Under the pieces are notes generated by a model. The model saw only the letters and a list, made by a program, of their open reading frames with translations, did not search any database and was not told where the DNA came from. From the IMG/VR virus record IMGVR_UViG_3300032240_001872, positions 15,750 through 79,749 of that record: 64,000 bases of DNA; one strand, 5' to 3'. Shown one piece after another: positions 861 through 55,479 of the stretch. Origin of the DNA: a virus. How positions within the stretch are numbered: the stretch's first letter is position 1; each line of letters begins with the position of its first letter. A program made the translations under genes and the position numbers.

Positions 861-1187
861 ATGATCATTTTAACATCTGACGCAGTCAAAAAAGTATCAC
901 AAAACCTGGCCAAACGTGGTAAGGGGGTTGGTATTAGGATAGGTGTTAAAACCACCGGATGCAGTGGATTGGCTTATGTACTGGAATACGTAGACGAATA
1001 CAGATCTGAAGTAGGAGTCACAAATTATGCATACCAAGATTTTGTAGTGTTGGTTAGTGCAAAGGATGAACCTTACTTAAAAGGATTAACAATGGATTGG
1101 GTACGCAACGGACTAAATGAAGGATTTGAATTTAATAATCCAAATGAAAGGGATCGTTGCGGATGCGGAGAAAGTTTTAGGGTTTAA
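861..1187 (+). CDS. iscA: Fe-S cluster assembly A-type carrier (IscA/HesB family)
   Basis: TTGCSGLAY and C-terminal CGCGESF motifs; 108 aa. Confidence 0.95.
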   Translation: MIILTSDAVKKVSQNLAKRGKGVGIRIGVKTTGCSGLAYVLEYVDEYRSEVGVTNYAYQDFVVLVSAKDEPYLKGLTMDWVRNGLNEGFEFNNPNERDRCGCGESFRV

Positions 1188-1193
1188 AAATAT

Positions 1194-2105
1194 ATGGCAA
1201 CCAGCAAAGTAGTAGCACTTAGTTACAACAATATTCAATCAAAGATAGGGGCAATATTAGGGCCACCTAGTCCGTCTGTATTGGATCTTGGTTATAATCT
1301 TACTGTAAGTAGCGTACAAGTTCAGCCTGGTAAAAGAGTCTACGGCCAAGATGCCAACTTGATGATCGGCGACTTAAACACTATTTTTACTCATCAAACC
1401 ACATTAGATTCTGGTCTAACTACATTTAGTCAAGGTCAACTAATCAAAACAGGAGACCTTACACCGCTATCTTCAAAAACAGATACTGCATACGCCAATC
1501 GTAACACAGTTGGTCTTGCAAATTTATCTCAAATAAATTCAGATTCATACAGCGACGGAACTACATGGTCGGCGTATAGGATACACACCGTAACACTAGA
1601 TTGGGGCAGTAATGCTGAATTCCGTGGTTGGGGTAATTTAGGTGGTTTCATAACTATTGGTGCAGGTTTCCAAGGAGGCAGCGGCACACTTCAAACAAAT
1701 TCTTGGAGCCAGCTGTTGCAATCTACGGGAGTGGTGGTTCTTGGAAATGTAGCGGCAACACAAGAAAATCAAACACGTAACGGCAGTTTTCCAAATGGCG
1801 GGCTATATAATATCTTGCAAAACGGCCAACAAGGTGCTAATGCAGGTACCGCTTTTAAAATCTTAGCCACAGACGCAAACTATACAGGTAACTTGTATAA
1901 AATAACAATAACACCATACGGTGGTGCTGATGCATTTAACTGCAAGGGATTTACAATAACAGCAACAATGACAGATCCTCATACTTCTCCACCTAAGGCA
2001 AAAAATTCAGATTTCATTGATGCAGATTTTACATGGACCGTTAACACCTATTATGCGTTTAACAAATCCCCCACTGCATCTAACGTTACTAACAGTATAT
2101 CGTAA
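1194..2105 (+). CDS. putative virion structural protein (paralog family with 2115-2999 and the C-terminus of 3008-7366)
   Basis: G/S/T/N-rich; shares N-IQS-I-AILG-P, FxxW(G)NxGG, WxxLL and DxNYT motifs with its neighbours. Confidence 0.55.
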   Translation: MATSKVVALSYNNIQSKIGAILGPPSPSVLDLGYNLTVSSVQVQPGKRVYGQDANLMIGDLNTIFTHQTTLDSGLTTFSQGQLIKTGDLTPLSSKTDTAYANRNTVGLANLSQINSDSYSDGTTWSAYRIHTVTLDWGSNAEFRGWGNLGGFITIGAGFQGGSGTLQTNSWSQLLQSTGVVVLGNVAATQENQTRNGSFPNGGLYNILQNGQQGANAGTAFKILATDANYTGNLYKITITPYGGADAFNCKGFTITATMTDPHTSPPKAKNSDFIDADFTWTVNTYYAFNKSPTASNVTNSIS

Positions 2106-2114
2106 GGAAATAAT

Positions 2115-2999
2115 ATGGGAAAAATATACGCATCAGATTGGAATCCTATTCAATCTTCTATAGCTAATATTATGGGAGCTCCGAGCGGAACTGCTTACGG
2201 ATGGAACAAAGCATCTAGTGTAACAAGTGCGCAGGTTAACAGCACACAGCAGATTAATCATACTCACTATAACGTTCTTAAAGACGATATTAATTTTTGT
2301 TATACACATATTACGGGATCAAATTCTTCATTACCTATTAGAAATGCAGGAACACAAATAACCCAAGCTGATTTAACCAACGTCGCTGCCGCCCAATCTT
2401 ACATTAGCACAAATAAAACCACGGCCGCCTCCTCACAACTGACTACATCTAACATATTCAGTAACACCCAGGCATACACATGGACATCTTCATTGGGAGC
2501 CACGTATACATGGTCTTGGGCAAATGCTACCCAGTTTAACGCTTTTTGGAATGCTGGTGGACAAATTTATTGGAACACATCTAGATATGCAGGTTCATCA
2601 ACACCACAGAATCAAGGCTGGACGAATCTCTTGGCCAATTCGGGATTTATCTATATTACAGCAACAGCCTCGGGTCAAGTAGGTGCTACTTGGGCAGGAA
2701 CTGTTTATAATACTAACGGTATAGGCGGCTTTTCAACCGTGCCGTCAATATTTACAAAGGTATATGATCAGGATTTAAATTATACCAATAATTATTATCA
2801 AACTGAAGTATGGTTAGATGCCCAAGCTGGTAATGGAGCCACAACAATGAATTTGAAGATATCTCTAATCGATACCCACGTGGGAACTGCTGGAGGCCCC
2901 GATGAAATTGATGGTAACGTTGCATTAACTATAACTCAAAAATATCCATATACATGGGCGGCTGGTGCGGCCACTTCCAGCAACGGCTTCTTGACCTAA
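2115..2999 (+). CDS. putative virion structural protein
   Basis: SD AAGGA upstream; S/T/N/G-rich; FNAFWNAGG and GWTNLL motifs shared with paralogs. Confidence 0.55.
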   Translation: MGKIYASDWNPIQSSIANIMGAPSGTAYGWNKASSVTSAQVNSTQQINHTHYNVLKDDINFCYTHITGSNSSLPIRNAGTQITQADLTNVAAAQSYISTNKTTAASSQLTTSNIFSNTQAYTWTSSLGATYTWSWANATQFNAFWNAGGQIYWNTSRYAGSSTPQNQGWTNLLANSGFIYITATASGQVGATWAGTVYNTNGIGGFSTVPSIFTKVYDQDLNYTNNYYQTEVWLDAQAGNGATTMNLKISLIDTHVGTAGGPDEIDGNVALTITQKYPYTWAAGAATSSNGFLT

Positions 3000-3007
3000 G
3001 GAATAAC

Positions 3008-6000
3008 ATGAACGAATTAATTGAATACATTGTAATTGTACACAACATTGAAGACAAGCCGGCACTACACGACGAAATTATAAATTCCGGCGGTAGCGAA
3101 TGCGTGCCTGATCGAGCTGTTGATTGCTGTTTAAATCCAACTGCCAGTCGTTCCACTCATTACATGATGACTGAAGCAGAAGCTGAATTATTAAGGCAAG
3201 ATCCAAGGGTGTGGGAAATAACTAGAACCATGAAGGATTTAGGAATCGAAGCTGTACCTGCTGGCGGTTACACACAAACTTCTAATTTATGGAGTAGAGG
3301 TTATACAACTGCTCAAGGAGACAACAATTGGGGCATCTTAAGGGCAGTGGAAGGTGTTCAAAGATTTCAGTGGGGAAGTGACAGTCCTCAACAATTATTC
3401 GATGTATCAGCAACTGTGAATATTCCATTTAGCGGCACTAACGTTGACGTAGTAATTGTAGATGGCCACGCTGATCCGGCGCACCCAGAGTACGCGGTTA
3501 ACTCGGATGGTAGTGGTGGGAGTCGGTATAATCAATTTAACTGGTTAAGTCTTAGTAACGGACTTTGGGGATCGACTAACGGCAATTACATATACACCCC
3601 ATATCGTCAATCCCAAGGAGCGACCGTGGCCTTAGAATCCAACAATATGCACGGTTCTCACGTCGCTGGCATTGCATGTGGTAATACTAACGGTTGGGCA
3701 AGGAGCGCCAACATCTACAACATATATCCATATGGCAATGATAGCAATGCTTTTAACTTTACCACTAATCAGTTTATTAACGGATACTTTTTTGAGTACA
3801 TAAAATATTGGCACCAGAACAAGGCGGTTAACCCTGCGACTGGTACTAGAAATCCGACCATTATAAACAACAGTTGGGTCATTCAAAAAGTTATTGATAT
3901 ATCTACTATCAGTTCGGTTACCTACAGAGGAATTACTTACACAGCACCGTCGGGCGGATTTAGTGTAGCTACCCTTAATGGTTATGGTTTTCCAACTTAT
4001 AGTAATACTCAGGTTAGAATACTATACCGATATCCTGCATATGAATCACAATTACAAGACTGTATTAATGCAGGAATCATAGTAGTCAGTGCCGCTGGTA
4101 ATTATTCTACAAAGATAGCCAGAGACGATCAATCTACAACTGATCCTGATTATAATAATAGTCTTGTAACTTCTGGAACGACATATTACTATAATAGAGG
4201 AACATTTACTACAGTTTCTAATGGTATTGTAGTTGGTGCTCTAAGTTCTTCCTACATTGATATCAAATCAGGATATTCTGAAACAGGTCCTAGAATCGAT
4301 GTATGGTCTCCTGGTTCTTACATTACAAGCTCAGTTTTTAATAATACCACCTACAGCGGCGCTGTTGCTGACACTAGAAATAGCAATTACTATCAGGTTA
4401 AGATTAACGGAACATCAATGGCAAGCCCGCAGGTCACAGGACTGTTAGCATGTTTGTTAGAGTTATTCCCAACAACTACTCAAGCAGATGCACAACAGTA
4501 CTTAATCGACCACGGTAAAGAAGGCACTATGCAGGACGGCGGTTATAACGTTGTCAACCCGCTATACGACACCGGACTACTTCAAGGTGCACCAAATAGA
4601 ACCTTGTATGCATATTGGCCGCCTGCGCCTACTGCAACTGTGGCATTGCCTTCAACAACTATCAAAACAGACACTGTGGCAAAATTTACTCCCGTAGTAG
4701 GATCAGGCGGAGTAGGACAATTGGTTTATACCATCAGTCCTGCTCTGCCCTTAAGTTCCTTAGATGGTACTGCACAATGTTGGATTGAAGCAATAGCCGG
4801 AAGAACTGATGTAGCCTACTTTCATTTAGTATCTGCAACGCCAGTCGATAACTTTAAAGTAGGAGACGGAATCTTTGGAGCAGGGATAACAGATGGTTCA
4901 GTGTTACAATTTCCAACAGATTCAGGCAAGCTAACCTGGACCATCTCGCCAGGTTATACTTCTAACGTAGGTAGTGCTGGTAGTCCAGTTTACTTTGATA
5001 CAGGCTTACATATTAATAATAAGACTGGCGAAATTACAGGAAGAACTGTGAGAACTCAAGTGTCGACTACTTATACTGTTACAGTTACAGGAGGAGGCGT
5101 GTCAGCGACTGCACAGTTTTCTTTAGCGATCACTCCAGGTTCGTCATATGGTATCACACGTAATGTAGCCTACGGATCTGATGCGATACAACAATGTGAC
5201 TTCTGGGAAGTGCAGAGTGGTACCCCAAAAGGAGTTATCGTTTGGGTTCACGGTGGCGGATGGGTAGGGGGTGCCAAAGGACCTGTCGGGTTTACAACAA
5301 GTCAGGGGGGCAACTGGATTAATGATGAAGATCAAATAAGACAACTGGTACAGAAAGGCTATTATGTTGTTAACTGCAATTATCGATTGGCTACAACTGA
5401 TACTAATTATATTCCTACAGGTGGTAGTAGTACCGCTAACTATCATCCAGCCGGCGCTGATGATATCGAAACTATCATAAGATTTTGTACGACCGCCAAC
5501 GCCGGGTCTAGTTATAGTTCAGTATGGAATACAATTTCAGCTAGAGCCAACACCTATGGACTCATCATTGCTGGAGAAAGTGCAGGCGGACACTTGGTAG
5601 CTTATGCTGGTATGAAGTATATCAATGATTACGGACAAGGTCCTATCACTGCTATTTGCCCAGTAGTAGGTCCTATGGATTTAGACCATGTAACACTGGA
5701 AAATATTGGGCCAACGAACATAACTCAGACTGCTAAGGATATAGTTAATAATTATGTAAACGCTGTTAATAATAGTACAGCGTTACAAGCGGCTTCACCT
5801 AGATACAAGTATGGATCTCTGGCAAGTCCTGGACCATGGCGTACTGCTGTAAAAAATTCTGGTGTGAAATTTATTTTTGTAAACAACATCAATGATACAT
5901 TAGTTCCGTCAATTCTCACTGACAATTTCATTAACACTCTACAATCAGAATTAGGAAATAATAGAGTTAAGTATATCAAACTAGATGAAGGTGGCGATTG

Positions 6001-7366
6001 GGCGGCGGCCAATATTGCATATCCCAATCATAATTTAACCAGCGCGATTTCAACTATTGCAGAAACAGTAGCGGCGCTTGGTAATATAATAACGCCGTCA
6101 GTATTAGTTACATCAAAAATCATCACAGCAGGACAAGCGACATCATTTACTCCAGTAACCTTCGTTGGCGGTGCAGGAACTGTCACGTATAGCATAAACC
6201 CAAGTCTTCCAGCAGGGATGAGTTTTAATACCTCCAATGGTGCTATTACTGGAACACCTAGTGCGTTTTCACAAACCACTACATATACAGTTACAGGAAC
6301 GGATTCGGCCAGTAATACAGCATCTGGTACGTTTACCTTATTGGTTCAGTCCGCGCCGTCAGTAGGCGGAACAACTCCAGTGAATCATAACGATTGGAAC
6401 GCATTACACAACAAAGTTGCAACGGTGCTTGGAGCCCCTGATGGTTCCATAGTCGACTTAGGGTGGAATCAGGGTATTATAAGCGGTATCGTAAATACCA
6501 ATGACACGATCACCGGTATTGAATACGATCAGATTGCTCAAGACGTTGACGTTTGCTATCAACACATTGCCAATACAAGATATCAACCTCCATCTAGAGT
6601 ACCAGTTACTGAAAAGTATCATGTTACACAGTCAGACTATACAGGTCTAAGTGCGGCTGTTGACTACTGTTATGCAAATAGAACTACAGTTTCTCCGACC
6701 AAATTAACTGCATCTTCATGGACTGCACATAGCGGTAATATAACATGGACTTTGATCCATGGATTTGGTTATCAGATTGATTTCGCAGATAATGCCGCCT
6801 TTAGAAGTTTTTGGAACGCGGGCGGGACTATATCTTGGAATTTTGGATTCGTTCCCACAGCATCTCCTCCATTCGCTCCTATTAATCAAAATTGGGTAGA
6901 TTTGTTAAGTGGTATTGGTACCTTTACACTTTCTAGAAATTCTTTTACTCAAACTGGGCAAGTTACCGGTTATAATGCTACTATATATTCGAACGTGTCT
7001 TCCGGAGTCTATGGCGGAAATATGTTAGTAAATCCAGACCCAATATCCAATCCTGGAACAGCATTGTCTATGAAATGTTTTGGTGGCGACCCAAATTATA
7101 CCAGTAGTTATATAGAAATGTGGCTCGGTCTGGATAGTAGTAATTTGCTTGCCGCGAAATCTATTTGGGTCGTTTCTGCAGTAGTTACTGCCCACACTGG
7201 ATTAGGTGGCTCTAATAACTACACCTCTGATGGTAATTTAAGCCTATCACAAACCACTAGATATCCATTCAATATTCAACAGGTTGGTCAGAGCCATGCG
7301 TATAATTACACTGACGGCGTCAGAACTAACGCTCTAAGCTACCCAGGAATACAGCCGTCATTTTAA
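3008..7366 (+). CDS. multidomain protein: S8 subtilase + Ig-like + alpha/beta-hydrolase (esterase) + Ig-like + structural domain
   Basis: Start reassigned to ATG 3008 after SD AAGGA. S8 residues: VVIVDG, HGSHVAG, SAAGN, GTSMASPQV. Esterase motifs HGGGW and GESAGG. Putative Ig repeats (LPAGMSFNTSNGAITGTP). C-terminal FRSFWNAGG domain. Confidence 0.85.
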   Translation: MNELIEYIVIVHNIEDKPALHDEIINSGGSECVPDRAVDCCLNPTASRSTHYMMTEAEAELLRQDPRVWEITRTMKDLGIEAVPAGGYTQTSNLWSRGYTTAQGDNNWGILRAVEGVQRFQWGSDSPQQLFDVSATVNIPFSGTNVDVVIVDGHADPAHPEYAVNSDGSGGSRYNQFNWLSLSNGLWGSTNGNYIYTPYRQSQGATVALESNNMHGSHVAGIACGNTNGWARSANIYNIYPYGNDSNAFNFTTNQFINGYFFEYIKYWHQNKAVNPATGTRNPTIINNSWVIQKVIDISTISSVTYRGITYTAPSGGFSVATLNGYGFPTYSNTQVRILYRYPAYESQLQDCINAGIIVVSAAGNYSTKIARDDQSTTDPDYNNSLVTSGTTYYYNRGTFTTVSNGIVVGALSSSYIDIKSGYSETGPRIDVWSPGSYITSSVFNNTTYSGAVADTRNSNYYQVKINGTSMASPQVTGLLACLLELFPTTTQADAQQYLIDHGKEGTMQDGGYNVVNPLYDTGLLQGAPNRTLYAYWPPAPTATVALPSTTIKTDTVAKFTPVVGSGGVGQLVYTISPALPLSSLDGTAQCWIEAIAGRTDVAYFHLVSATPVDNFKVGDGIFGAGITDGSVLQFPTDSGKLTWTISPGYTSNVGSAGSPVYFDTGLHINNKTGEITGRTVRTQVSTTYTVTVTGGGVSATAQFSLAITPGSSYGITRNVAYGSDAIQQCDFWEVQSGTPKGVIVWVHGGGWVGGAKGPVGFTTSQGGNWINDEDQIRQLVQKGYYVVNCNYRLATTDTNYIPTGGSSTANYHPAGADDIETIIRFCTTANAGSSYSSVWNTISARANTYGLIIAGESAGGHLVAYAGMKYINDYGQGPITAICPVVGPMDLDHVTLENIGPTNITQTAKDIVNNYVNAVNNSTALQAASPRYKYGSLASPGPWRTAVKNSGVKFIFVNNINDTLVPSILTDNFINTLQSELGNNRVKYIKLDEGGDWAAANIAYPNHNLTSAISTIAETVAALGNIITPSVLVTSKIITAGQATSFTPVTFVGGAGTVTYSINPSLPAGMSFNTSNGAITGTPSAFSQTTTYTVTGTDSASNTASGTFTLLVQSAPSVGGTTPVNHNDWNALHNKVATVLGAPDGSIVDLGWNQGIISGIVNTNDTITGIEYDQIAQDVDVCYQHIANTRYQPPSRVPVTEKYHVTQSDYTGLSAAVDYCYANRTTVSPTKLTASSWTAHSGNITWTLIHGFGYQIDFADNAAFRSFWNAGGTISWNFGFVPTASPPFAPINQNWVDLLSGIGTFTLSRNSFTQTGQVTGYNATIYSNVSSGVYGGNMLVNPDPISNPGTALSMKCFGGDPNYTSSYIEMWLGLDSSNLLAAKSIWVVSAVVTAHTGLGGSNNYTSDGNLSLSQTTRYPFNIQQVGQSHAYNYTDGVRTNALSYPGIQPSF

Positions 7367-7379: not shown

Positions 7380-7721
7380 ATGGATGAAAGATTAGTCAAG
7401 GCATTAGAACATGCTGATTATCGACAGACTCTTGGTATTGAAAGACAGCGGTTAAAAGACAAAGCTCACGCAGATCTTATCATAGGCTACAATGGTGGCA
7501 TGTTTACTGTTGATCGAACACTTATTGGATTTGTAACAGCTATCAAAGAATACGGATCTGCTGTTATTTTAGATGACAACGGATATCCAGTTGAAATTGA
7601 AGACCTAGATGAATTCCAAGCAAGGGTAGTTGGTACATATTTTGAAGTTACCAACAAATACCTAACAGACTATAACGAAATCAAACAAAAAAGATCTGCG
7701 GCAAAATTGGTGGATTTATGA
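7380..7721 (+). CDS. hypothetical phage protein
   Basis: 113-aa ORF with SD-like AAGG; overlaps the next gene (ATGA). Confidence 0.7.
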   Translation: MDERLVKALEHADYRQTLGIERQRLKDKAHADLIIGYNGGMFTVDRTLIGFVTAIKEYGSAVILDDNGYPVEIEDLDEFQARVVGTYFEVTNKYLTDYNEIKQKRSAAKLVDL

Positions 7722-8548
7722 ACCAAGGTTGTTGTATATTTGCCTACGACGGCGATATAGCCTACGGCACTCAAGCGGCTCTGTCAGCTCGGTTAGTTAA
7801 GAAATATCTTAATATACCTGTTAGTCTTATAACAGATGAAGATACTTCGAAGCGGGTTGATCACAGTATTTTTGATCAAATCATTATAACTGAAATAGAA
7901 GACACAGGTAACTCACGTATGCTGTCCGGAGAAGCCATTGCTTTTAAAAACACCAACAGAAATAAAATCTACGATCTTACTCCGTATGATCGTACACTAT
8001 TAATCGACAGTGATTTTTTAGTATTCAGTAATCGTCTAAAAGATTATTTAGATAGTGGTTACAATTTTATGATATGCGAAAACATGAAAGATCTATGCCC
8101 CAATAGACCCGGAAGTAAAGTCACGTTCGGTCCAGCAAGTCTTCGCATGCTGTGGGCAACAAATATTATATTCAACAAAACTCCCGAAAATAAAATTCTT
8201 TTTGATCTAGTAGAACACATTCGCGAAAACTGGGAATGGTATGGAGTGCTTTATCATTTTGATACCAGGAGATTCCGTAACGACTATGCATTTACAGTAG
8301 CATGTCATATTATGGGAGGATTTGGCGCTGATCAATATTATATAGCCTTGCCTAGTCCCATATTGTTTAATGATCAAGATTCATTAGTTGGTAAGAAGGC
8401 CGTGGAAAAAATAATAGCTAAAAAAGATCTAACATGGATTGTTGGGGAGCAAAACATATTAGTTAAAACGCAAAATCAAGATATTCACATGATGAACAAA
8501 CTAGATTTACTGAAAAAAATAGATACATTTTTAAATTTATATGATTGA
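7718..8548 (+). CDS. nucleotide-diphospho-sugar transferase-like (GT-A fold)
   Basis: TPYDRTLLIDSDF DxD motif; paralog of the next gene. Confidence 0.65.
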   Translation: MNQGCCIFAYDGDIAYGTQAALSARLVKKYLNIPVSLITDEDTSKRVDHSIFDQIIITEIEDTGNSRMLSGEAIAFKNTNRNKIYDLTPYDRTLLIDSDFLVFSNRLKDYLDSGYNFMICENMKDLCPNRPGSKVTFGPASLRMLWATNIIFNKTPENKILFDLVEHIRENWEWYGVLYHFDTRRFRNDYAFTVACHIMGGFGADQYYIALPSPILFNDQDSLVGKKAVEKIIAKKDLTWIVGEQNILVKTQNQDIHMMNKLDLLKKIDTFLNLYD

Positions 8549-11484: not shown

Positions 11485-11539
11485 AACTCGCCAACATATT
11501 AAAGAATTGCGTAAGCGCGACCCATTTATCTACAAATGA
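11438..11539 (+). CDS. 33-aa micro-protein (MNWLIRILTTPWRWYKTRQHIKELRKRDPFIYK) coupled to the carbamoyltransferase
   Basis: Not in the ORF track. Fills the 11484-11536 gap; its TGA overlaps the carbamoyltransferase ATG (ATGA). Confidence 0.7.
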   Translation: MNWLIRILTTPWRWYKTRQHIKELRKRDPFIYK

Positions 11540-22082: not shown

Positions 22083-22116
22083 AAAAGATAATTATCATTA
22101 TACAGAACGGTACACC

Positions 22117-22920: not shown

Positions 22921-22921
22921 T

Positions 22922-47521: not shown

Positions 47522-47563
47522 GATGTATTTAAACGTATTATAGTAGCATATAAATATTTCATG
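47519..47563. promoter_or_regulatory. back-to-back late promoters
   Basis: Minus strand TAAATA(47531-47526)-N4-ATG(47521); plus strand TATAAATA(47549-47556)-N4-ATG(47561). Confidence 0.65.
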
Positions 47564-48235
47564 ATACCAATATTCATAGGCTACGATCCTAAAGAAGCAA
47601 TAGCATACCATACGTGTGTTAACAGTATAATACGAACTGCATCTAAGCCTATATCAGTTATACCATTATCATTAAATCTATTAGATGGTTATACCGAAAC
47701 TCATATTGACGGTAGTAATACTTTTACCTATACAAGATTTCTAGTACCTACTCTGATGGACTACAAAGGCTGGGCTATCTTTGTAGACGGAGATATGTTA
47801 CTACGCGACGACATTAACAAACTATGGGAGTTGCGAGATGAAAGCAAAGCAGTTATGGTTGTTAAACATGATTACGAAACTAGAGCAAATAGCAAGTATC
47901 TCAAAGCAAGAAATAATAACTATCCCAGAAAAAATTGGTCAAGCGTCATCTTATGGAATTGCGGGCATGCCAGCAATAGAAACATTACCGCAGAGTTTGT
48001 ACAACAATCAACAGGAGACTTTCTGCATAGATTTTCCTGGTTAGATGATCAACAGATTGGAGAGCTACCAAAGGAATGGAATTGGTTAGACGTTGAATAC
48101 GAATGGAACCCACTTGCAAAATTAGTACACTACACATTAGGAACACCGTGTTTCCATGAGTTTGCTGATAAAGGAGACTTTGCTGATGAATGGCACAAAG
48201 AACGCATATTAACAAATCATGCTGACCAAGTATAA
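47561..48235 (+). CDS. glycosyltransferase (GT8-like)
   Basis: Start MIPIFIGYDP; FTYTRFLVP, FVDGDM, YPRKNWSS, EWNWL, VHYTLGTP. Confidence 0.82.
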   Translation: MIPIFIGYDPKEAIAYHTCVNSIIRTASKPISVIPLSLNLLDGYTETHIDGSNTFTYTRFLVPTLMDYKGWAIFVDGDMLLRDDINKLWELRDESKAVMVVKHDYETRANSKYLKARNNNYPRKNWSSVILWNCGHASNRNITAEFVQQSTGDFLHRFSWLDDQQIGELPKEWNWLDVEYEWNPLAKLVHYTLGTPCFHEFADKGDFADEWHKERILTNHADQV

Positions 48236-48815
48236 AGCAAGAGTACAACCTAGATTAAACGGAGACATCTTTACATATTTTACAGATGCCTTTGGACGCC
48301 GTCGTATATTAGATAAATGGTTTTATTTTTATATACACAATCCCAAACGACCTGTTATTATATGGAAAATCAAAGCAGTAGATCAGTATCAGCTACAACC
48401 AGGAACTAATAGATACATAGGCACGGCATTGAGAGGATCAAGTGAATGGTTAGATGCATACTATATAACAGACGAGCCTGTTCCTAGCTATGAAGAACTA
48501 GAGATATTAGGAATGATCGATTACAAAGATGTTGATGATCTAGGGCCTAACTTCGATCAGATTACACTAGATAATCCGTTACATGTATGGGGAGTTGGAG
48601 AAAATGAAATACATTGGCATCAACCTGTATTTGATTGGATCAATGCCAATGTAAAGTATAAATGGGGGTTAGAGTATAAGGGAAAGACCTACTATGTTAA
48701 CTATTCTCTATTTAGAAAGACTAAGAAGATTGTACGAGCAGAAGATTATCCAACTGTTCATTTAGCAGTACAGGATTTATTCAAGATGATTAAAATAGAG
48801 TCTGGAATAGTCTGA
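48219..48815 (+). CDS. hypothetical protein
   Basis: 198-aa ORF overlapping the GT stop. Confidence 0.55.
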   Translation: MLTKYKARVQPRLNGDIFTYFTDAFGRRRILDKWFYFYIHNPKRPVIIWKIKAVDQYQLQPGTNRYIGTALRGSSEWLDAYYITDEPVPSYEELEILGMIDYKDVDDLGPNFDQITLDNPLHVWGVGENEIHWHQPVFDWINANVKYKWGLEYKGKTYYVNYSLFRKTKKIVRAEDYPTVHLAVQDLFKMIKIESGIV

Positions 48816-50177
48816 TAGTTCTTGTGAAGCAGGAGGTCTTATACTTTTCTTGCTATGAAAAACTTTGTAATTGTGTTCTAATACTTCTTTCATAGATTTA
48901 AACCAGGTATGTTTGTCTTCGATAGCATCTATATCGTTTAGTAGTTTTATAATAGCATCCATTCTTTCAAATGTAGGAAGATCGTCGTAGCTTTCATCAA
49001 AGAACTCACTGAAAGTTTTATATCCCATTTCTCTTACAGCTCTAAGACTACCTTTACCACCTAGTAGGATAAAAGGATGCATACATGCTATCGGTTTAAA
49101 TGTTTTTTCACTAATGAATACTGCTGTTTCATTGTCTGCAAATATAGGTTCGCTGATAACACTTACCCAAGAGTCTAAGCACACACTATCTCTAATACGA
49201 TCTATGTAGTAGCGATCATCAAATTGGACATTTGATTCTCCGTAGATTTCTAAAGGTAGCACGGTTCTTGCTTCCTGAAGAAGTTGCTCGTCTGGTATTC
49301 TATGTTCTAAGTAGGTATGGACATTTTGATAGTCGTTCATACTCACTAAGCCTTTGTTTAGTAATCCTGCCTGAAATAATTTCAAATAAAACCATATTCG
49401 ATGTGCCCTTAATCTTTTTTGTAGGCAATTAAAAGTTTTAATATTGTGTGTTTCTTTATACGCAATATTGTAATCCCAATCAGATATTAAGTTTTGTTTC
49501 TCAGCAATGAATTGAACGTATCTTTCAAAATGTGCATAAGGAATAGGTTTAATTCTATCAACTATTTGATTACTTGCGCACCATCGAGCATAATGCTCGT
49601 GAGCAAACCAATCTCCTGTTACATATACAACTGCCTGCGGTGGAATATTATATTGCCTACAACTGTCGTGGAACCAATTCCACAACCACGATGTATGATA
49701 TCCTTCTAGGCTTTGATCAAACATTATAATTGCTTGTCCTGATTGTAGGTCGGAAAGATATTCTGGATTGATATAACAAAAAAGATCTCTAGCCCAATCA
49801 TTAGGATGGTGACGTACTCCTACAGCAATTACATATGGTTTAGGATGTCCACCAAAATCAAAGTTAGCTTTCTTTATATCTCTTTTAAGACTGCTGGTTC
49901 CTTTGAGATAATCAAAATCAATAGTAACTGCTGATAGTACACTAGGATGCACTCTACTCATTCCAGATGCATTGATATCTTTACAGGCTATTAGGTTCTC
50001 CCTACTATCATGCCTGTTTAATTCAAATACAAAATTAATTAGATAAGGATTTGCAGTCGTGGTAGAATTTTTCAAGTTCTGGAAAGGTTTTAAGAAAGTC
50101 CGTGCCACGGCGGCGATCGTATTCTGTAAACCAATTGTAGAAATCTCTACGACCTTCAATAAGTTTTGTTTCATCAT
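48777..50177 (-). CDS. GT-B-like protein (SEKTFKPI family); true start uncertain
   Basis: FNCLQKRLRAHR, VISEP, FISEKTFKPIACMHPF, GYKTF..FFDESYD, EHN. The annotated start overlaps the upstream gene by 143 nt. Confidence 0.6.
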   Translation of the reverse strand: MMKQNLLKVVEISTIGLQNTIAAVARTFLKPFQNLKNSTTTANPYLINFVFELNRHDSRENLIACKDINASGMSRVHPSVLSAVTIDFDYLKGTSSLKRDIKKANFDFGGHPKPYVIAVGVRHHPNDWARDLFCYINPEYLSDLQSGQAIIMFDQSLEGYHTSWLWNWFHDSCRQYNIPPQAVVYVTGDWFAHEHYARWCASNQIVDRIKPIPYAHFERYVQFIAEKQNLISDWDYNIAYKETHNIKTFNCLQKRLRAHRIWFYLKLFQAGLLNKGLVSMNDYQNVHTYLEHRIPDEQLLQEARTVLPLEIYGESNVQFDDRYYIDRIRDSVCLDSWVSVISEPIFADNETAVFISEKTFKPIACMHPFILLGGKGSLRAVREMGYKTFSEFFDESYDDLPTFERMDAIIKLLNDIDAIEDKHTWFKSMKEVLEHNYKVFHSKKSIRPPASQELSDYSRLYFNHLE

Positions 50178-51375
50178 AATTAGTAGTTCTCATATACTCA
50201 ACAACACGACTAAACTTTTCACGTTCTAATTCCGAAAATTTATTTCTATGCATAAACTCTAAAGATATTTCCATATATCTAATAAAGTCTTCTTTGGGCA
50301 ATAGATTCATATCATATTGCAATGGTTCTTTTAGATAAGGTGTATCAAATCGTATGCGTTGTTTACGACTAAACCAACCATTATATTTCTTACGCCATTG
50401 TAAGATCTTAACTAACAATGAACTGAAGTTTGTAACAGTTAAAATATTAAATGTACACATGAATGTAATTGGCTGTTTTGTCTTGGTTAGGTATGTGTCT
50501 AGATTTTTTTCCCATACTGTTAAGTCTAATCCTGTACGTATATATTCAGCAGGAGTTCCCCACGTATCAATGCTGGTAAACAATTTAAAGTGTTTGATCT
50601 TACCTTCATCGAGTAGTGCATTAACTTTAGTAACCAATCGTTCCATTAGCACAGGCTTGACTCCAAGATTGCTGTTGATATTGATCTCTAGGTGTGGCTT
50701 TGGATTAACTGATAAATCGTCTAACAGTTTCCATGTGCTTTGTTGTAGCAATGGCTCGCCGCCGGTAATGCGTAAGATGTTTAGAGTCTTACTAACTTCT
50801 GGCCACCAGCGCCACCATGCTTCAACATATGGATTTGTTTCTTCTTCGTAGACAGTAAAGTAATCAATATCGTTACGATGATTCTTAACCATAGTGTAAG
50901 GACCAAAGTCTTTGATTTCTTTGTAGTATGCGGAACTATGTTTAGGATGGCAATATCCGCACTTGAAGTTACATTCGTTGCCAAAGCTGATCTCAATGTA
51001 CTCTGGATTTACAGGAGCTAGAGGATTGGTCTTGATAGCTTCAAGGCGTTCTTCTGTGTAAATGCTGGCATTGCGTTCATGCCTATCACTAATATGTTCG
51101 CCTGGTAATGCTTCTATGTTCCAACAGTACTGACAGCCACTAGGCTTTTTGCCGTCTAGCATCTGTTGTCGCTCTAGTGTCTTTTGTGGAGTGTTATGTA
51201 ATGTGCTAGGATCTGCTAAGTCTAAAGGAATAGCATGCGGTCTAGGATGATAGCAACTATGCGTTTGTCCAGACTGCAGATATATTGTAGTGTGATGCCA
51301 TTTAGCCAAACAAAAAGTAGAACTTATTTCGTTGACTATTGGGATTACTTTATGGATGCGACTAATCTCGCTCAA
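50035..51375 (-). CDS. twitch-domain radical SAM protein
   Basis: Probable TTG start (LSEISRI); FCLAKW..HSCYH..CQYC; CNFKCGYC; TGGEP; INSN. Confidence 0.88.
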   Translation of the reverse strand: MSEISRIHKVIPIVNEISSTFCLAKWHHTTIYLQSGQTHSCYHPRPHAIPLDLADPSTLHNTPQKTLERQQMLDGKKPSGCQYCWNIEALPGEHISDRHERNASIYTEERLEAIKTNPLAPVNPEYIEISFGNECNFKCGYCHPKHSSAYYKEIKDFGPYTMVKNHRNDIDYFTVYEEETNPYVEAWWRWWPEVSKTLNILRITGGEPLLQQSTWKLLDDLSVNPKPHLEININSNLGVKPVLMERLVTKVNALLDEGKIKHFKLFTSIDTWGTPAEYIRTGLDLTVWEKNLDTYLTKTKQPITFMCTFNILTVTNFSSLLVKILQWRKKYNGWFSRKQRIRFDTPYLKEPLQYDMNLLPKEDFIRYMEISLEFMHRNKFSELEREKFSRVVEYMRTTNYDETKLIEGRRDFYNWFTEYDRRRGTDFLKTFPELEKFYHDCKSLSN

Positions 51376-52114
51376 TGTCGGCCTCACTACATTCTGTGCC
51401 ATATTGTATTTCTACAATGCGGCAAGGCACATCATAAGGATTGCTAAGTCTGTGCCATTCCTTTTTTGGAATATGATACGAATGATGTTCAATTAATTCT
51501 CGTGTTGGATAATGATATCTTGCATTGCTCATAGATTCTATCATACAACGGCCTTCCGCTACATGCCAATACTCTGCACGATGTTTGTGCCTTTGCATCG
51601 ATAATGCTTTTCCGGGTTCAATGGTAAGTTCTTTTACCTTTGTCCCAGCTACTTCATGTAGTACACGATAGTAACCCCACGGACGTTCTGTCTTAGGAGC
51701 TTTCCAATCATCTAATATCCAACTAGAACTATTTGCTTTAGTGTCTCCACCTACACCAAACTTAAACACAACATCAGAGACTAACATTTCCGGAATGTTA
51801 TTTGCTGTACGATCGCCGCCATTGGCAAAAATAATAGTATCGTTAGGATATAGTTGCTTTACGTTTTTAATTGCTTCAACTGATGATCCGTCGTCATCAT
51901 TGAACAATATAACACCATCTACCATTCGAAGATTTTGTAATATTGTTGTACGCTCAGTAATAGGCATAAAGGATCTGCCTTTCTTACGTGCCAACCAACT
52001 ATCGCTATTGAGCCCAACGATTAGCTTATCTCCTAACTCACGTGCAGAGTTGAAGTATGCAATATGCCCAGAGTGGATAGGGTCGAAACCCCCAGTAACT
52101 AACACTATTTTCAT
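51362..52114 (-). CDS. cytidylyltransferase-like domain fused to a mannose-6-phosphate isomerase-type cupin
   Basis: TGGFDPIHSGH, FANGGDR, KANSSS; TERPWGYY, LSMQRHKHRAEYW, WHRL, VEIQYG. Confidence 0.88.
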   Translation of the reverse strand: MKIVLVTGGFDPIHSGHIAYFNSARELGDKLIVGLNSDSWLARKKGRSFMPITERTTILQNLRMVDGVILFNDDDGSSVEAIKNVKQLYPNDTIIFANGGDRTANNIPEMLVSDVVFKFGVGGDTKANSSSWILDDWKAPKTERPWGYYRVLHEVAGTKVKELTIEPGKALSMQRHKHRAEYWHVAEGRCMIESMSNARYHYPTRELIEHHSYHIPKKEWHRLSNPYDVPCRIVEIQYGTECSEADIERD

Positions 52115-52525: not shown

Positions 52526-52526
52526 A

Positions 52527-53246
52527 TCAGTATTTATTGGTATTGCGCTCTTTATAAAAGATATGCCCACCAATCCTATTCACAGTTTCTTTACCATGCA
52601 CCCATGCAGGACGAATGCCTGTTGCGTGAAAGTATAAAGCATCTGCGTACTTTGATCTGAGGTCCTCATAATTCCCAGAATCACTTAACAACACCAAAGC
52701 AACACGCTGGCTTTCTACCCATCGTTCATCGTCACTCTTGGGGTTCTTAACAAACATGCAACGCCAGCTAAACTGACAGATGCTGATCTTAGACCATACT
52801 GTTTGTGTTTCTTTAATCGTACGGAAGTATTCCCGCTTTTCGATTATTTGATGTTTAGGAATGTCCTTAGTCAGTTTCTGATCAACAACACCACAAATGG
52901 TATTCCTGAATCTGCCATCGGTTGTACGATTAATCGTTACAAGACCAACAGCTACTTTACCTTCTTCGGGTTCATTGCCTGCTTCAAAGAATATGTTCCT
53001 TGCTAGGCAATCGAATTCCTTTATATTGATTACAGGGCTTAACATCGCCTTTGCGATTCCCTGCAACTTATCACTTGTCATATTATAAAAGTCCTGTGGA
53101 CCTGCTGACTGATAAGAATTACTTGCTACTTGGTATGCTTCGCCTTTTTGGAAAAAGTTCTGCTCTACCACTGTTTCTGCATGACCGGGTGCCATTACGG
53201 TCAGGGCGTATACTGCTACTAACACTAAAAATCGTGTTATTGACAT
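52527..53246 (-). CDS. cell wall hydrolase, SleB/Hydrolase_2 family
   Basis: N-terminal hydrophobic signal; CLARNIFFEA.NEP..GKVAV..VTINR, ICGVV, QFSW, ALYFHA, IGGHIFY; SD AGGAGG. Confidence 0.9.
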   Translation of the reverse strand: MSITRFLVLVAVYALTVMAPGHAETVVEQNFFQKGEAYQVASNSYQSAGPQDFYNMTSDKLQGIAKAMLSPVINIKEFDCLARNIFFEAGNEPEEGKVAVGLVTINRTTDGRFRNTICGVVDQKLTKDIPKHQIIEKREYFRTIKETQTVWSKISICQFSWRCMFVKNPKSDDERWVESQRVALVLLSDSGNYEDLRSKYADALYFHATGIRPAWVHGKETVNRIGGHIFYKERNTNKY

Positions 53247-53344
53247 AATCGTGTCCTCCTATTTTTGTATACTTCTACTGTCTATGTGTGTGAAATCCTT
53301 TACGGGTAAGTTTAGTTACATCTTTTTGTAATATCTGAACTAAA

Positions 53345-53374
53345 ATAGGGCAAAAAAGACTCATTTTGCCCTAT
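53345..53374 (-). terminator. intrinsic terminator
   Basis: 11-bp inverted repeat ATAGGGCAAAA/TTTTGCCCTAT followed by a T-run on the minus strand, just after the stop of 53387-53605. Confidence 0.7.
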
Positions 53375-53386
53375 AAACTAGGTATA

Positions 53387-53605
53387 TTACTCTTCAGAAG
53401 TGCTTGCTGTGTTCGTATCGTTGGTTTTGTAATTTCCACCGCCTTGCTGTGGCTTACGTGGTTCACGTTTTGGAACGATTGCCGCGGCCAGCTCTGCTTG
53501 GATCATGTCTCTCTTAAATGAGTTACGTGCCACTGGATCAGTAAACGTACACATGAATCGTTTGGTCTGTTTAGACATCTTGAATGTTTTGTTGGGTTTT
53601 AGCAT
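53387..53605 (-). CDS. small basic hypothetical protein
   Basis: 72 aa; SD AAGGA; has its own promoter and terminator. Confidence 0.7.
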   Translation of the reverse strand: MLKPNKTFKMSKQTKRFMCTFTDPVARNSFKRDMIQAELAAAIVPKREPRKPQQGGGNYKTNDTNTASTSEE

Positions 53606-53624
53606 AATAGTTCCTTATCTGTAT

Positions 53625-53653
53625 ATTATATTATCTTTCGTTGCGATTGTCAA
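53625..53653 (-). promoter_or_regulatory. consensus sigma70 promoter
   Basis: TTGACA-17-TATAAT on the minus strand. Confidence 0.8.
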
Positions 53654-54374
53654 ATGCGGTCTTGGTTTTATCATCCCACCAATATAAACTTCTATGTGGA
53701 GTACTTATAGGTGTCGAGTTACTGGCATAATAAAATAGACGTATGTTTTCTCGCTGTAGATCCTCTGGGCAATCTATAGGAGTAGGGTATCCATGTATCA
53801 GTCTTTCATCGTAGTCCCATATGATCAATCTATTGGGCATAGGATAAGTTTTAACTATACAATGTGTTCTCTCAAAGTCCCAGAACTCAAGAGCTCCATT
53901 CCACTCTTCTTTCCAAACAGGATTAAGATAAAGAATAGCACTACATGATCTATTCAAGTGCAGTTGCTCATTCCAATTAAAATCTGTGTGTAGGTTTAAA
54001 AAATGTCCTTTCTTACAAGTCGATAATCCTGCACCTACTAATTTAGGATCGCTTATAATTCTGTCTTTGCCTGTGAGGGTTTCTAACCAATCTAAAAATA
54101 CTCCGCTGTTAAAACAATGTGTCAATGTCTGCAACACCGATGCACCCGCTAGATTCTTGCACTCCTGCATTAGGCTACCTTTACGTGTGAAGTTGGTCCA
54201 TTGTTCTTTGGGTATTGTAGCAATTTCCTGTTGTGCTTCTGCAAATACATCGTGAGGCAAGAAATCATCTATGACCAAATAGGGCACAGGTTCCTTCTGC
54301 AGGTAATCTATCTTATACTCTTTGGGATTGTACTTGAGATGCAGATTGTTGAAGTAATTGTAGAGTCTGTTCAT
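53631..54374 (-). CDS. 2OG-Fe(II) oxygenase (prolyl-hydroxylase-like)
   Basis: VIDDFL, LNLHTDFN, ILYLNPVWKEEWNGALEFW, NRL, IHGYP, R..IRLFYY. Confidence 0.85.
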   Translation of the reverse strand: MNRLYNYFNNLHLKYNPKEYKIDYLQKEPVPYLVIDDFLPHDVFAEAQQEIATIPKEQWTNFTRKGSLMQECKNLAGASVLQTLTHCFNSGVFLDWLETLTGKDRIISDPKLVGAGLSTCKKGHFLNLHTDFNWNEQLHLNRSCSAILYLNPVWKEEWNGALEFWDFERTHCIVKTYPMPNRLIIWDYDERLIHGYPTPIDCPEDLQRENIRLFYYASNSTPISTPHRSLYWWDDKTKTAFDNRNER

Positions 54375-55479
54375 GATAAGTTGGAATCTTTTCTTTGAGC
54401 GATTTTAGATGTTCTTTATTGTATTGCGCTATCGCTCTGCACATGGCCATGGTCATGGCATATTCAACTCGATCTAATTTGGTTAATCTTTCAAGTTCAT
54501 TGAGAATAGCTCGATGTCTCTGTTCGCTGTTCAAAATAGTGTCATAGCTTTCATCTATGTAAGGATGGAACGTTTTAAATCCCAAATCAGTTACTGCCTT
54601 AAGACAATTTGGGGGACCATATAAAATAAACGGTCTTTCACAGGCAATAGATTTAAAAGTCTTTTCAGTTAAAAATCTAGGCAACGTGTGTTTGTTATCC
54701 AAGAAATCAAAATGTGTTTCTATTGCTAGATTAACATCTGCTCGTTGTATTGCAGTAAATGTCGAATCATGGAACTTGTTGCTTACATCATTCAGTGTAT
54801 CTAGAGAATAGGGCACATTTTCTAACCAAGTTGACAATGGGTCATTTACAACGTCATAGCGCATTTTGCTGAGATCTTGTTTTAGTATTTCCATTGGTAT
54901 AACTTTAACCAGCCCATAGGGCTCAATATTATGGAACGTATAGACGAATTCGTCTAAGACTCCCTGCAATAATAAATCTGCAAAAAGTCGCAGGCGCCAA
55001 GGTTTATAGTTACGGCTAAGGCAACTGAACTTGTACATGGGATCAACAGTTTGTTCTGGAATCTTGGTATTGAATATACTTTGCCAACTTATACCAATGT
55101 TGATCTTAATTCCCAAAGGGTCTAGGTATGACTCCAGAAAGTCCTTGTGTTCTTGATCGCACACAACAACAATAATACGGTCTTGTGGTAGATTTCTCAA
55201 CTGTATTTGAATAGCTAAATCTCTACAAAATTCTTGATCAAACGTTTCATTTGAGTTCTCATACAGGAACAAGGTAGTTGGATCAGATTTGAAGTGGTCC
55301 CAATGTGGACTCTCCAAACAGTTACGCATTTTGATTTTGTGATTCAACAGATCATATATCTGATAGTGATAGATGATATTTGGCTCTGGTGTCCAATCTA
55401 ACAGTTTGTTAACGCTGTCAAAATTAAACCGGGTCTGCGGGGTTCTACCCGTTTTAGAATATATTTTTGGTAAACTCAT
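54313..55479 (-). CDS. GT-B-like protein (TEKTFK family)
   Basis: FSCLSRNYKPWR, AIETH, FLTEKTFKSI, GFKTFHPYIDESYD; TAAATA-N7-ATG upstream. Confidence 0.6.
   Translation of the reverse strand: MSLPKIYSKTGRTPQTRFNFDSVNKLLDWTPEPNIIYHYQIYDLLNHKIKMRNCLESPHWDHFKSDPTTLFLYENSNETFDQEFCRDLAIQIQLRNLPQDRIIVVVCDQEHKDFLESYLDPLGIKINIGISWQSIFNTKIPEQTVDPMYKFSCLSRNYKPWRLRLFADLLLQGVLDEFVYTFHNIEPYGLVKVIPMEILKQDLSKMRYDVVNDPLSTWLENVPYSLDTLNDVSNKFHDSTFTAIQRADVNLAIETHFDFLDNKHTLPRFLTEKTFKSIACERPFILYGPPNCLKAVTDLGFKTFHPYIDESYDTILNSEQRHRAILNELERLTKLDRVEYAMTMAMCRAIAQYNKEHLKSLKEKIPTYHEQTLQLLQQSASQVQSQRV

Follow-up and report, generated by a model that had tools for sequence, protein, structure and literature searches.

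A 50-kb radical SAM, oxygenase and glycosyltransferase-like gene cluster of a jumbo phage as a candidate glyco-tailoring system

Clusters of radical S-adenosylmethionine (SAM) genes have been noticed repeatedly in phages related to T4. The Campylobacter phages CP220 and CPt10 carry 11–12 such genes, including an exchangeable module of five together with a putative glycine amidinotransferase (Timms et al. 2010, PMC2853527), and later papers have left the function of this module unexplained. Another example is TARA_ERS488813_N000010, a T4-like marine viral genome of 183 kb in which 12 radical SAM genes accompany a gene for an A-type Fe-S carrier (Nishimura et al. 2017, PMC5332604). Jumbo cyanophages carry clusters of 8–12 genes for carbamoyltransferases, halogenases, 2-oxoglutarate/Fe(II)-dependent dioxygenases (2OGFeDO) and double-stranded beta-helix (DSBH) proteins, for which capsule decoration or a secondary metabolite has been proposed (Iyer et al. 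2021, PMC7824862). Here we analyze an island of 14 radical SAM genes and their companions at positions 861–55479 of a 64,000-nt window, bases 15750–79749 of the 79,749-base virus record IMGVR_UViG_3300032240_001872; genes are named by their first coordinate in this window. The island is a real, unusually large form of a known but uncharacterized kind of phage cluster, to which we add a three-part anatomy, a gene fusion linking AspH-type hydroxylases to GT-A-fold transferases, and a cultured phage that carries part of the set. We estimate a probability of about 0.5 that it is a composite glyco-tailoring cluster, in which soluble enzymes would tailor a sugar and transfer it to a glycoconjugate. 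The initial annotation of this DNA knew of no characterized pathway with such gene content. That statement is true, although the cluster type itself had already been recorded in the three studies above.

The island resembles the CP220/CPt10 module in kind and exceeds it in size. Both combine, in a T4-related phage, clustered radical SAM genes with a pentein-fold amidinotransferase and genes for glycosyltransferases (GT) of the GT-A fold, two of which (gp088 and gp089, annotated GT-A) flank the CP220 module. Parts of the two are homologous: the SPASM radical SAM proteins gp080, gp083 and gp084 are 27% identical to island protein 23543, amidinotransferase gp086 is 27.6% identical to its counterpart, and the class A radical SAM proteins are homologous. 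The CP220 module, however, has five radical SAM genes in about 9 kb, compared with 14 in about 50 kb here. Its matches to the N-terminal-twitch class are weak and confined to the radical-SAM core, it has none to the B12-binding radical SAM proteins, the class III aminotransferase or the AspH proteins, and it contains a PAP2 phosphatase that the island lacks. The TARA genome, compared by description only, likewise belongs to an uncultured T4-like phage that combines an Fe-S assembly protein of its own with twelve radical SAM genes. The cyanophage clusters share the carbamoyltransferase, several 2OG/DSBH hydroxylases and methyltransferases, and a tryptophan-halogenase homologue lies upstream of our window; neither a radical SAM array nor an amidinotransferase is described for them.

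Three-part anatomy of a conserved cluster

The source is a T4-related jumbo myovirus of the XacN1, RsoM2USA and PA5oct kind. We assign the DNA to a phage and not to a cell because it is an IMG/VR record and because its relative G002, a 269.7-kb IMG/VR record that is 76% complete, contains a T4 gp23-type major capsid gene. The cultured phages nearest to G002 are Sinorhizobium phage Phosso (78%), Vibrio phage 2.275.O (73%) and PA5oct (72%). CheckV puts the completeness of our record at 22%, so that the whole genome should measure about 360 kb. Phages in GenBank gave no match to the window by megablast, nor to the B12-binding radical SAM protein used as query or to protein 22117 by tblastn.

The island is tripartite. 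The initial annotation treated it as a single uniform unit of about 50 kb, a view that conservation contradicts, as the wider lineage keeps only 14.5–47.6 kb. We distinguish a left arm (7380–13029), a 33-kb core (14519–47611) and a variable right arm (47366–55479). At least 10 IMG/VR contigs keep the gene order of the core, at 47–87% amino-acid identity, and only one intergenic gap of the core (43585–43784) exceeds 50 nt. The core encodes 12 radical SAM proteins, an array of AspH and DSBH proteins, two proteins resembling short-chain dehydrogenases/reductases (SDR), an aminotransferase, an amidinotransferase with a small partner, an AdoMetDC-like decarboxylase and a GT-A-fold protein. Both arms are missing from G002 and from a further relative, G003; the right arm is kept only in closer relatives (contigs L107–L110). 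Inside the core, 24607–28361 is a variable insert with no orthologues in G002 or G003, and relatives carry the 14519 gene at the far end of the core.

Part of the gene set also occurs in bacteria, chiefly in Bdellovibrionota. Searching one genome per prokaryotic species with an alignment of the N-twitch class yielded 253 relatives, and the best 75 of these came overwhelmingly from Bdellovibrionales, Bacteriovoracia and Oligoflexia, including chromosomes of 1.9–3.0 Mb. The arrays share a kernel consisting of a GT-A gene (9915 family), a methyltransferase-like gene (45969 family) and N-twitch, SPASM and class A radical SAM genes, often joined by the amidinotransferase and its small partner, AspH-like proteins, a carbamoyltransferase or B12-binding radical SAM proteins. 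The 45969 family adjoins GT-A and N-twitch genes both in bacteria and in RsoM2USA. Three phage proteins exceed the curated cut-off of NF033640, the family that marks the bacterial arrays. These arrays differ in being chromosomal and rich in paralogues, in fusing AspH to a 32902-type domain, and in showing, across the 10 kb examined, neither domain-X proteins (the fibre-like proteins discussed below) nor the 22117 family; like the phage cluster, they are uncharacterized. In a single Bacteriovoracaceae locus, two GT2 genes and an ArnT/PMT_2-type GT-C flank the radical SAM array, a hint of lipid-carrier glycosylation in bacteria.

Smaller sets occur in other viruses. The cultured Vibrio phage K566 (255 kb), a further possible experimental system, has four clustered N-twitch-type radical SAM genes near PnuC and NAMPT at 161.5–168.3 kb, and an 8-kb single-cell-derived record of marine virus AG-345-D19 (MH319727.1) contains an amidinotransferase and an N-twitch radical SAM homologue.

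Recurrence in unrelated replicons bears on whether there is one pathway at all. The flanks and the 24607–28361 insert differ between relatives, the 14519 gene has moved, and the core is lower in GC than its surroundings, by about 5 points in G002. All of this would suit independent auxiliary genes kept together by descent. We nonetheless find this account very improbable, since sub-sets recur in Bdellovibrionota, CP220, RsoM2USA, K566 and AG-345-D19, and since a gene fusion and conserved gene pairs connect the members. The expectation that the genes would be co-conserved was confirmed: they travel together in relatives and in other replicons and are not a random collection.

Enzyme families and the chemistry they suggest

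The gene content suggests that a sugar is tailored step by step and then transferred, because the nearest characterized relatives of the enzymes, StrB1, AprD4, BlsE and MoaA, all act on sugars, cyclitols or nucleotides, and because five to nine transferase-like proteins accompany them. The families, intact motifs, dense packing and joint conservation in phages and Bdellovibrionota are observed, whereas reaction order, sugar scaffold, acceptor and timing are inferred. Soluble cytoplasmic enzymes would take a host-supplied sugar, a nucleotide-sugar or a sugar already on the acceptor. A hydroxyl would be oxidized by the SDR-like proteins, by dehydrogenase-type radical SAM enzymes of the twitch and SPASM classes, or by both. 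The class III aminotransferase would then transaminate the product, and the StrB1-type amidinotransferase would convert the amine to a guanidine with arginine as donor. C-methylation by B12-binding radical SAM enzymes, hydroxylation by AspH-type and other Fe(II)/2OG enzymes, O-carbamoylation and methylation may add further groups, and the product would be joined to a glycoconjugate, or lengthened there, by transferases of the GT-A, GT8 and GT10-like kinds. The phage's own IscA and IscU would feed Fe-S clusters to the 14 Fe-S enzymes.

All 14 radical SAM genes of the initial annotation are genuine by motif, with an intact CX3CX2C in every one, and its iscA gene at the head of the island matches PF01521. 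Twelve of the 14 pass the PF04055 cut-off (29.5 bits), while 23543 (27.8) and 50035 (27.2) fall just under it. They form five paralogue classes: four MoaA/viperin-like (class A), three B12-binding, two with a C-terminal SPASM domain, four with an N-terminal twitch and one with a Zn ribbon. The N-twitch proteins 38896, 41403 and 50035 score 389.8, 339 and 310.2 bits against NF033640 (N_Twi_rSAM; cut-off 170 bits); the scan covered these three, and 40301 was placed in the class by paralogy. Their Cys-rich twitch precedes the CX3CX2C core, with Pfam SPASM matches at residues 8–68, 22–79 and 49–127, and the residues C8, C27, C65 and C68, along with C124, C128 and C131, are invariant.

The other classes have distant characterized relatives. 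The best NCBIfam matches of the B12-binding proteins 15441 and 17059 (ladderane, PhpK and HpnJ types) lie far under the cut-offs, and their sole match in the Protein Data Bank (PDB) is AprD4 (E 5e-5); among them, 17059 is 73–87% identical in relatives of the phage. MoaA is the best PDB match of class A protein 37808 (E 1e-4), and BlsE that of SPASM protein 44972 (E 0.014), to which MoaA is also near.

The island encodes about 11 Fe(II)/2OG oxygenases, as first proposed. Five match Pfam families (24607, 26278, 34220, 37174 and 53631; 37174 with 22.4 bits, just short of the 22.6-bit cut-off), and six are Pfam-silent but have an invariant HxD...H motif (22117, 28942, 34861, 35420, 35983 and 36518), which in 28942 comprises H154, D156 and H214. 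The genes at 34861–37833 are kept in both G002 and G003. Protein 22117, which has no Pfam family, forms 943 clusters at 90% identity in public metagenomes, on virus-type contigs, and PF05118 (AspH-family) clusters are among its nearest ESM-Atlas neighbours. An iterative hidden Markov model search seeded with three AspH proteins found no further members, a PF05118 search of the contig found no additional one, and hhalign of shallow family alignments returned only paralogues already known. Genes for two paralogous 2OG-FeII_Oxy_3 oxygenases lie just beyond the island, at 57104–60021, along with those for an HNH endonuclease, a SAM methyltransferase and a Zn-ribbon protein; the oxygenase theme therefore runs past 55479, where the island was originally taken to end.

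AspH-type hydroxylases classically act on Asp and Asn residues of proteins. The cluster could accordingly be imagined to modify protein or peptide side chains in a proteusin-like manner, by C-methylation, epimerization and beta-hydroxylation, with little or no glycan. Its B12-binding and SPASM radical SAM proteins and 2OG hydroxylases correspond to the polytheonamide tool-kit, an S8 protease is encoded nearby, and the pairing of hydroxylase and GT-A protein resembles that in lysyl hydroxylase LH3. We judge this improbable on three grounds. The core contains no precursor-like small open reading frame (ORF), the only one in its gap (82 aa, 43550–43798) not being conserved. The radical SAM cores of SPASM proteins 23543 and 44972 start at residues 18–20 (the CX3CX2C of 23543 at residue 18), with no space for an RRE or PqqD-like domain. 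The amidinotransferase, omega-transaminase and SDRs, finally, are small-molecule enzymes.

Residues 2–350 of the amidinotransferase align with residues 5–341 of StrB1, the L-arginine:inosamine-phosphate amidinotransferase (1bwd, E 8.5e-20), followed by HsvA and SxtG. C341, 16 residues before the end, is invariant in eight homologues, as are H215 and D217, and we take the three to be the StrB1 catalytic triad. This full-length match with its conserved C-terminal, catalytic-type Cys bears out the original assignment; the gene and that for its 140-aa partner also recur as a pair in a bacterial locus (L033). Unlike that of StrB1, the surrounding phage pathway has no cyclitol synthase of the dehydroquinate (DHQ)-synthase family. 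The aminotransferase is a generic omega-transaminase, whose nearest PDB entries are omega-transaminases and putrescine, gamma-aminobutyrate and acetylornithine aminotransferases.

Pfam likewise upholds the carbamoyltransferase, the AdoMetDC-like decarboxylase, the class III aminotransferase, the SAM methyltransferase and the cytidylyltransferase-cupin protein. Other assignments are softer: the SDR (28363, 32301) and SGNH (18589) proteins were recognized by motifs read by eye only, and the proposed pseudokinases go back to a weak protein-kinase match of 21405 (E about 0.04).

Alternatively, the product of these enzymes could be a small molecule that stays free, such as a guanidino, aminocyclitol or aminoglycoside-like metabolite, which phage-infected cells and predatory Bdellovibrionota would release or turn against the host or competitors. 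Oxidation, transamination, amidination and methylation in sequence mirror the chemistry of streptidine and gentamicin. StrB1 is the best PDB match of the amidinotransferase and AprD4 the only one of the B12-binding radical SAM proteins, and two SDR-like and two kinase-like proteins are at hand. A weapon would also fit the occurrence of the set in free-living predators, and secondary metabolites have been proposed for related phage clusters (PMC7824862, PMC12801897). We still consider this route unlikely. PF01761, the DHQ-synthase family, is absent from all five records (G000–G004), which are incomplete and in which myo-inositol-phosphate synthase was not searched, and general Pfam scans, as opposed to a dedicated search, recognized neither an exporter nor a gene for self-resistance. 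Such a product usually needs fewer than nine transferase-like proteins, the aminotransferase is of a generic kind, and the related GT operon of RsoM2USA sits inside the tail module.

A sugar- or amine-bearing DNA base is a hardly credible product. Radical SAM enzymes, pyridoxal-phosphate enzymes and glycosyltransferases do occur in thymidine hypermodification pathways, and Campylobacter phages with similar modules have modified DNA. The entry enzymes of such pathways, ThyA-like (PF00303) and TGT/DpdA (PF01702), are nevertheless absent from the five records, including the 76%-complete G002, and in bacterial chromosomes the kernel has no DNA-handling partners.

Glycosyltransferase-like proteins and the virion link

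About nine glycosyltransferase-like proteins are encoded, close to the eight initially claimed, with unequal support. Four are better founded: 47366 is GT8 by Pfam, and 9915 (with its paralogue 10759) and 32902 have GT-A folds in AlphaFold models. The AlphaFold model of 9915 (predicted local distance difference test score, pLDDT, 84; predicted template-modelling score, pTM, 0.83) matches the GT2-type transferases SunS, PcManGT, PBCV-1 A64R, RmlT and SpsA in Foldseek, with VIA Z-scores of 10–11. Homologues of the 9915/10759 pair reach 59% identity among 14 Bdellovibrionota-type loci, and those of RsoM2USA are 41% and 45% identical. Residues 7–226 of 32902 match the GT-A folds of PBCV-1 A64R, STIV A197 and LH3/ColGalT1 (Z about 10). 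The remaining five are weak leads: 7718 and 8541 carry a DxD motif and are called GT8-like on a glycogenin match of 7718 (E 0.024), and the GT10-like call for the 43785/48777/54313 family comes from an ESM-Atlas lead (score 0.78).

Hydroxylase and transferase appear to belong together. The 32902 family is fused to an AspH-like domain in bacteria, and in the phage the 32902 gene adjoins AspH gene 34220. Fusion and adjacency link the two activities in a manner that, by analogy, recalls LH3.

The island enzymes are predicted to be soluble, as a hydropathy scan of the island proteins found a clear hydrophobic segment only in 43785 and the 52527 hydrolase and a borderline one in 41403. No Wzx, Wzy or WecA-type functions were seen in the island. 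This bears on the idea that the tailored sugar goes onto the host's lipopolysaccharide (LPS), capsule or another envelope glycan, for instance to block superinfection. The GT8 protein, the GT9-like 60328, the carbamoyltransferase and the nucleotidyltransferase-cupin are typical of LPS-type loci, a PAP2 phosphatase closes the CP220 module, and decoration of capsule or O-antigen was favoured for the cyanophage clusters (Iyer et al. 2021, PMC7824862). The Bacteriovoracaceae locus with two GT2 genes and an ArnT/PMT_2 GT-C beside its radical SAM array fits as well; it is, however, the only bacterial neighbourhood to do so. With soluble enzymes, with no membrane transferase, flippase, polymerase or ligase in the island, and with a tail-module position in RsoM2USA that suits a virion target better, we hold remodelling of the host surface to be quite unlikely.

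The cultured phage RsoM2USA places the left arm beside virion genes. This jumbo phage (MG752970; Ahmad et al. 2021, PMC8504454) belongs to the same broad capsid lineage. In our window the left arm is a glycosyltransferase operon that follows the fibre-like proteins, and it is syntenic with RsoM2USA ORF354–347, where homologues of 7380, 7718, 8541, 9915 and 10759 stand in order, with an N-twitch radical SAM gene and a 45969-type methyltransferase-like gene inserted; 7380, 7718 and 8541 are 30%, 34% and 29% identical to ORF354, ORF353 and ORF352. That operon lies inside the tail module, co-oriented behind ORF355, ORF356 and the tail sheath gene ORF359, and ORF356 has been confirmed as a virion protein by mass spectrometry (PMC8504454). 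ORF355 contains domain X of our fibre-like proteins 1194, 2115 and 2954 (pairwise E 1e-7). A second RsoM2USA locus (ORF202/199) pairs an N-twitch radical SAM gene with the carbamoyltransferase ORF199, 46% identical to that at 11536–13029. The genes homologous to ours at both loci are annotated as hypothetical, and the two loci examined lack the 33-kb core with its B12-binding radical SAM proteins, amidinotransferase, aminotransferase, AspH array and 22117. The synteny is new here and, as genomic context, gives positional support to a link with virion genes.

Phage proteins with the fibre-like domain X are possibly the acceptor, and are the best candidates that gene context offers. The initial annotation took 1194, 2115 and 2954 for virion proteins; homology gives no such status, which synteny with the tail module does suggest. 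The S/T/N-rich 1194 and 2115 match no Pfam or PHROG family, and 2954 matches phrog_9158 and a protease family. In cyanophage S-SCSM2R, virions purified on CsCl were found to contain both an amidinotransferase and a protein resembling prolyl hydroxylases (PMC12801897); this amidinotransferase, together with the RsoM2USA position, strengthens the case for a virion-protein target. As in the virion glycosylation systems of PBCV-1 (A64R) and mycobacteriophages, soluble GT-A proteins are found beside structural genes, judging from the A64R-like folds and the RsoM2USA tail module.

Several findings weigh against glyco-tailoring, and some against its virion form in particular. The core holds no scaffold-forming or sugar-activating enzyme, and the five records contain neither a DHQ-synthase-type cyclitol synthase nor an RmlA-type nucleotidyltransferase. 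GT-A Z-scores of about 10 are only modestly over background for a fold common among nucleotidyltransferases. No enzyme of the island reaches the cut-off of a characterized equivalog, and the radical SAM matches to named NCBIfam enzymes are far below threshold. Colinearity within one lineage may in part stem from common descent and not from function. The retrieved loci of G002, G003 and bacteria contain no domain-X proteins, and for this reason these proteins are not an obligate substrate of the conserved core. The virion-coat proposal of the initial annotation thus agrees with the folds, the nearest relatives and the RsoM2USA position, and conflicts with the lack of co-conservation between fibre-like proteins and core.

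In its most specific form the proposal is that the phage makes a sugar bearing guanidino, C-methyl, hydroxyl and carbamoyl groups by a pathway shared with Bdellovibrionota and places it on its own domain-X virion proteins through the GT-A transferases. We offer this tentatively, as less probable than not. To our knowledge, no bacteriophage virion glycan made by radical SAM chemistry has been described, and this one would be the first, and a new class of glycan. The gene set matters in any case: it is large, widespread, common to giant phages and predatory bacteria, and unexplained since 2010, and it includes the curated but uncharacterized NF033640 as well as at least five other families without a Pfam model. 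Identifying its product would establish new reactions of radical SAM enzymes on sugars and might reveal a new decoration of virions or infected cells. Since the cultured RsoM2USA carries the transferase/N-twitch kernel in its tail module, the virion-glycan idea can be put to the test at the bench.

Gene inventory, promoters and flanks

The features of the island are listed in Table 1. The SleB-type hydrolase at 52527–53246, in the right arm, is possibly a signal-anchor endolysin.

Table 1. Features of the island, in window coordinates.
Coordinates	Strand	Feature	Basis
861..1187	+	IscA/HesB A-type Fe-S carrier, head of co-directional left block	PF01521, E 8.4e-14
1194..2999	+	Two S/T/N-rich domain-X proteins (1194–2105, 2115–2999)	Paralogues of residues 1148–1440 of the 1470-aa protein
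2954..7366	+	1470-aa protein: S8 subtilase, BD-FAE/HSL-type esterase, He_PIG Ig domain, C-terminal domain X	Pfam
7380..9937	+	Small conserved protein (7380), two DxD GT8-like proteins (7718, 8541), unassigned 9374	RsoM2USA homology
9915..10790, 10759..11484	+	Two paralogous GT-A-fold transferases, each with helical C-terminal domain	AlphaFold, Foldseek/VIA
11536..13029	+	NodU/CmcH-type carbamoyltransferase	Carbam_trans_N E 1e-39, Carbam_trans_C E 4e-49
13022..14499	-	Two proteins without family match	Kept only in near-identical contig L002
14519..15466	-	Radical SAM, class A (MoaA/viperin-like)	PF04055; CNYNCSYC; 48% identity to Bdellovibrionota homologues
15441..18672	-	Two B12-binding radical SAM proteins (15441, 17059; 48% identical paralogues)	Pfam
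18589..19805	+	SGNH-like hydrolase (18589), AdoMetDC-like pyruvoyl decarboxylase	GDSH/GGSND motifs; PF02675 E 1.7e-15; both kept in relatives
19802..20884	-	Radical SAM with N-terminal HMPTM-type Zn ribbon (TrsS/Tes-like)	Pfam, NCBIfam; 65–80% identity in relatives
20875..23548	mixed	Conserved protein (20875), kinase-like paralogues (21405, 22922), AspH-like DSBH protein (22117)	Paralogy, motif
23543..24607	-	Radical SAM with C-terminal SPASM-like domain	Pfam; SPASM match sub-threshold (18.8 vs 21.5 bits)
within 24607..28361	-	TauD-like oxygenase (24607), SAM methyltransferase, 2OG-FeII_Oxy_5 (26278)	Pfam
24607..28361	-	Third B12-binding radical SAM, within variable insert	Pfam
28363..29670	mixed	SDR-like protein (28363), HxD...H protein (28942)	TGxxxGIG, YxxxK and HxD...H motifs; both kept in relatives
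29667..30860	+	Class III (omega) aminotransferase	PF00202, E 1.9e-43
30816..32308	-	StrB1/HsvA-type amidinotransferase (30816–31889), conserved 140-aa partner	PDB search
within 32301..34873	-	Second SDR-like protein (32301)	Motifs by eye
within 32301..34873	-	GT-A-fold protein (32902)	AlphaFold model, pLDDT 72
within 32301..34873	-	AspH-type hydroxylase (34220)	PF05118, E 1.5e-11
34861..37833	-	Four small DSBH-like proteins, second AspH-type hydroxylase (37174)	HxD...H; PF05118 E 1.2e-4, 22.4 bits
37808..43584	mixed	Five radical SAM proteins: class A (37808, 42631), N-terminal twitch (38896, 40301, 41403)	Pfam, NF033640, paralogy
within 43785..47611	-	GT10-like(?) protein (43785), methyltransferase-like protein (45969)	Weak GT10 lead; family context
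within 43785..47611	-	SPASM radical SAM (44972), class A radical SAM (46556)	Pfam
within 47366..52114	mixed	GT8 (47366), unassigned 48219, GT10-like(?) 48777, cytidylyltransferase-cupin (51362)	Pfam, Atlas lead
within 47366..52114		N-twitch radical SAM (50035)	NF033640, 310.2 bits
52527..53246	-	SleB-type cell-wall hydrolase, N-terminal hydrophobic segment	Pfam, hydropathy scan
within 52527..55479	-	2OG-FeII_Oxy_3 (53631)	Pfam
within 52527..55479	-	Third member of the 43785/48777 family (54313)	Paralogy

Promoters of the T4 late type are not borne out by the sequence. Most units had been thought to start from late-type promoters; the canonical T4 late consensus TATAAATA occurs once against 9.6 copies expected, a depletion on which we rejected it as the element at unit heads. 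A shorter motif, TAAATA, lies within 20 nt of the start in only 4 of about 22 unit heads, though this is far above chance given 25 copies in the window, and TTAAATA stands 5–6 nt ahead of the ATG of the 17059 orthologue in seven of eight relatives. By this alignment a conserved element is present upstream of 17059, while timing of expression cannot be read from sequence. The divergent 17059/18589 junction (18673–18699) carries TTAAATA; with the 18589 start moved to query residue 38, as homology indicates, it measures only about 27 nt.

The flanks differ in character. The 15.7 kb of the record upstream of the window contain genes for tail and fibre proteins, for IscU and a second IscA, for an HNH endonuclease, SDR epimerase and ATP-dependent DNA ligase, and for the halogenase homologue mentioned above. 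That part of the contig (1–16000) also holds an IF-1-like protein of 88 aa and a second subtilase-type protein with the same PHROG as 2954–7366.

To the right of the island (55480–64000), GC content rises, with a step near 55.5 kb that leads from about 0.37 to 0.48. A chimeric assembly at this step was ruled out, because four further IMG/VR contigs, obtained from other samples, show the same step at the same gene junction. In this GC-rich region, 60328–61323 encodes a 331-aa protein without Pfam or PHROG match; its N-terminal motif, read by eye, is heptosyltransferase-like (GT9-like), and its tail is of low complexity and rich in Pro and Gly. A single tRNA-Met (CAT) follows at 61343–61420, and sigma-70-like TTGACA...TATACT boxes precede ORFs 61919 and 62524. 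The latter (62524–63228) encodes a GP88-family protein (PF17338) whose best cultured-phage matches are in XacN1, Stenotrophomonas phages CM1 and RAS14 and Pelagibacter podoviruses.

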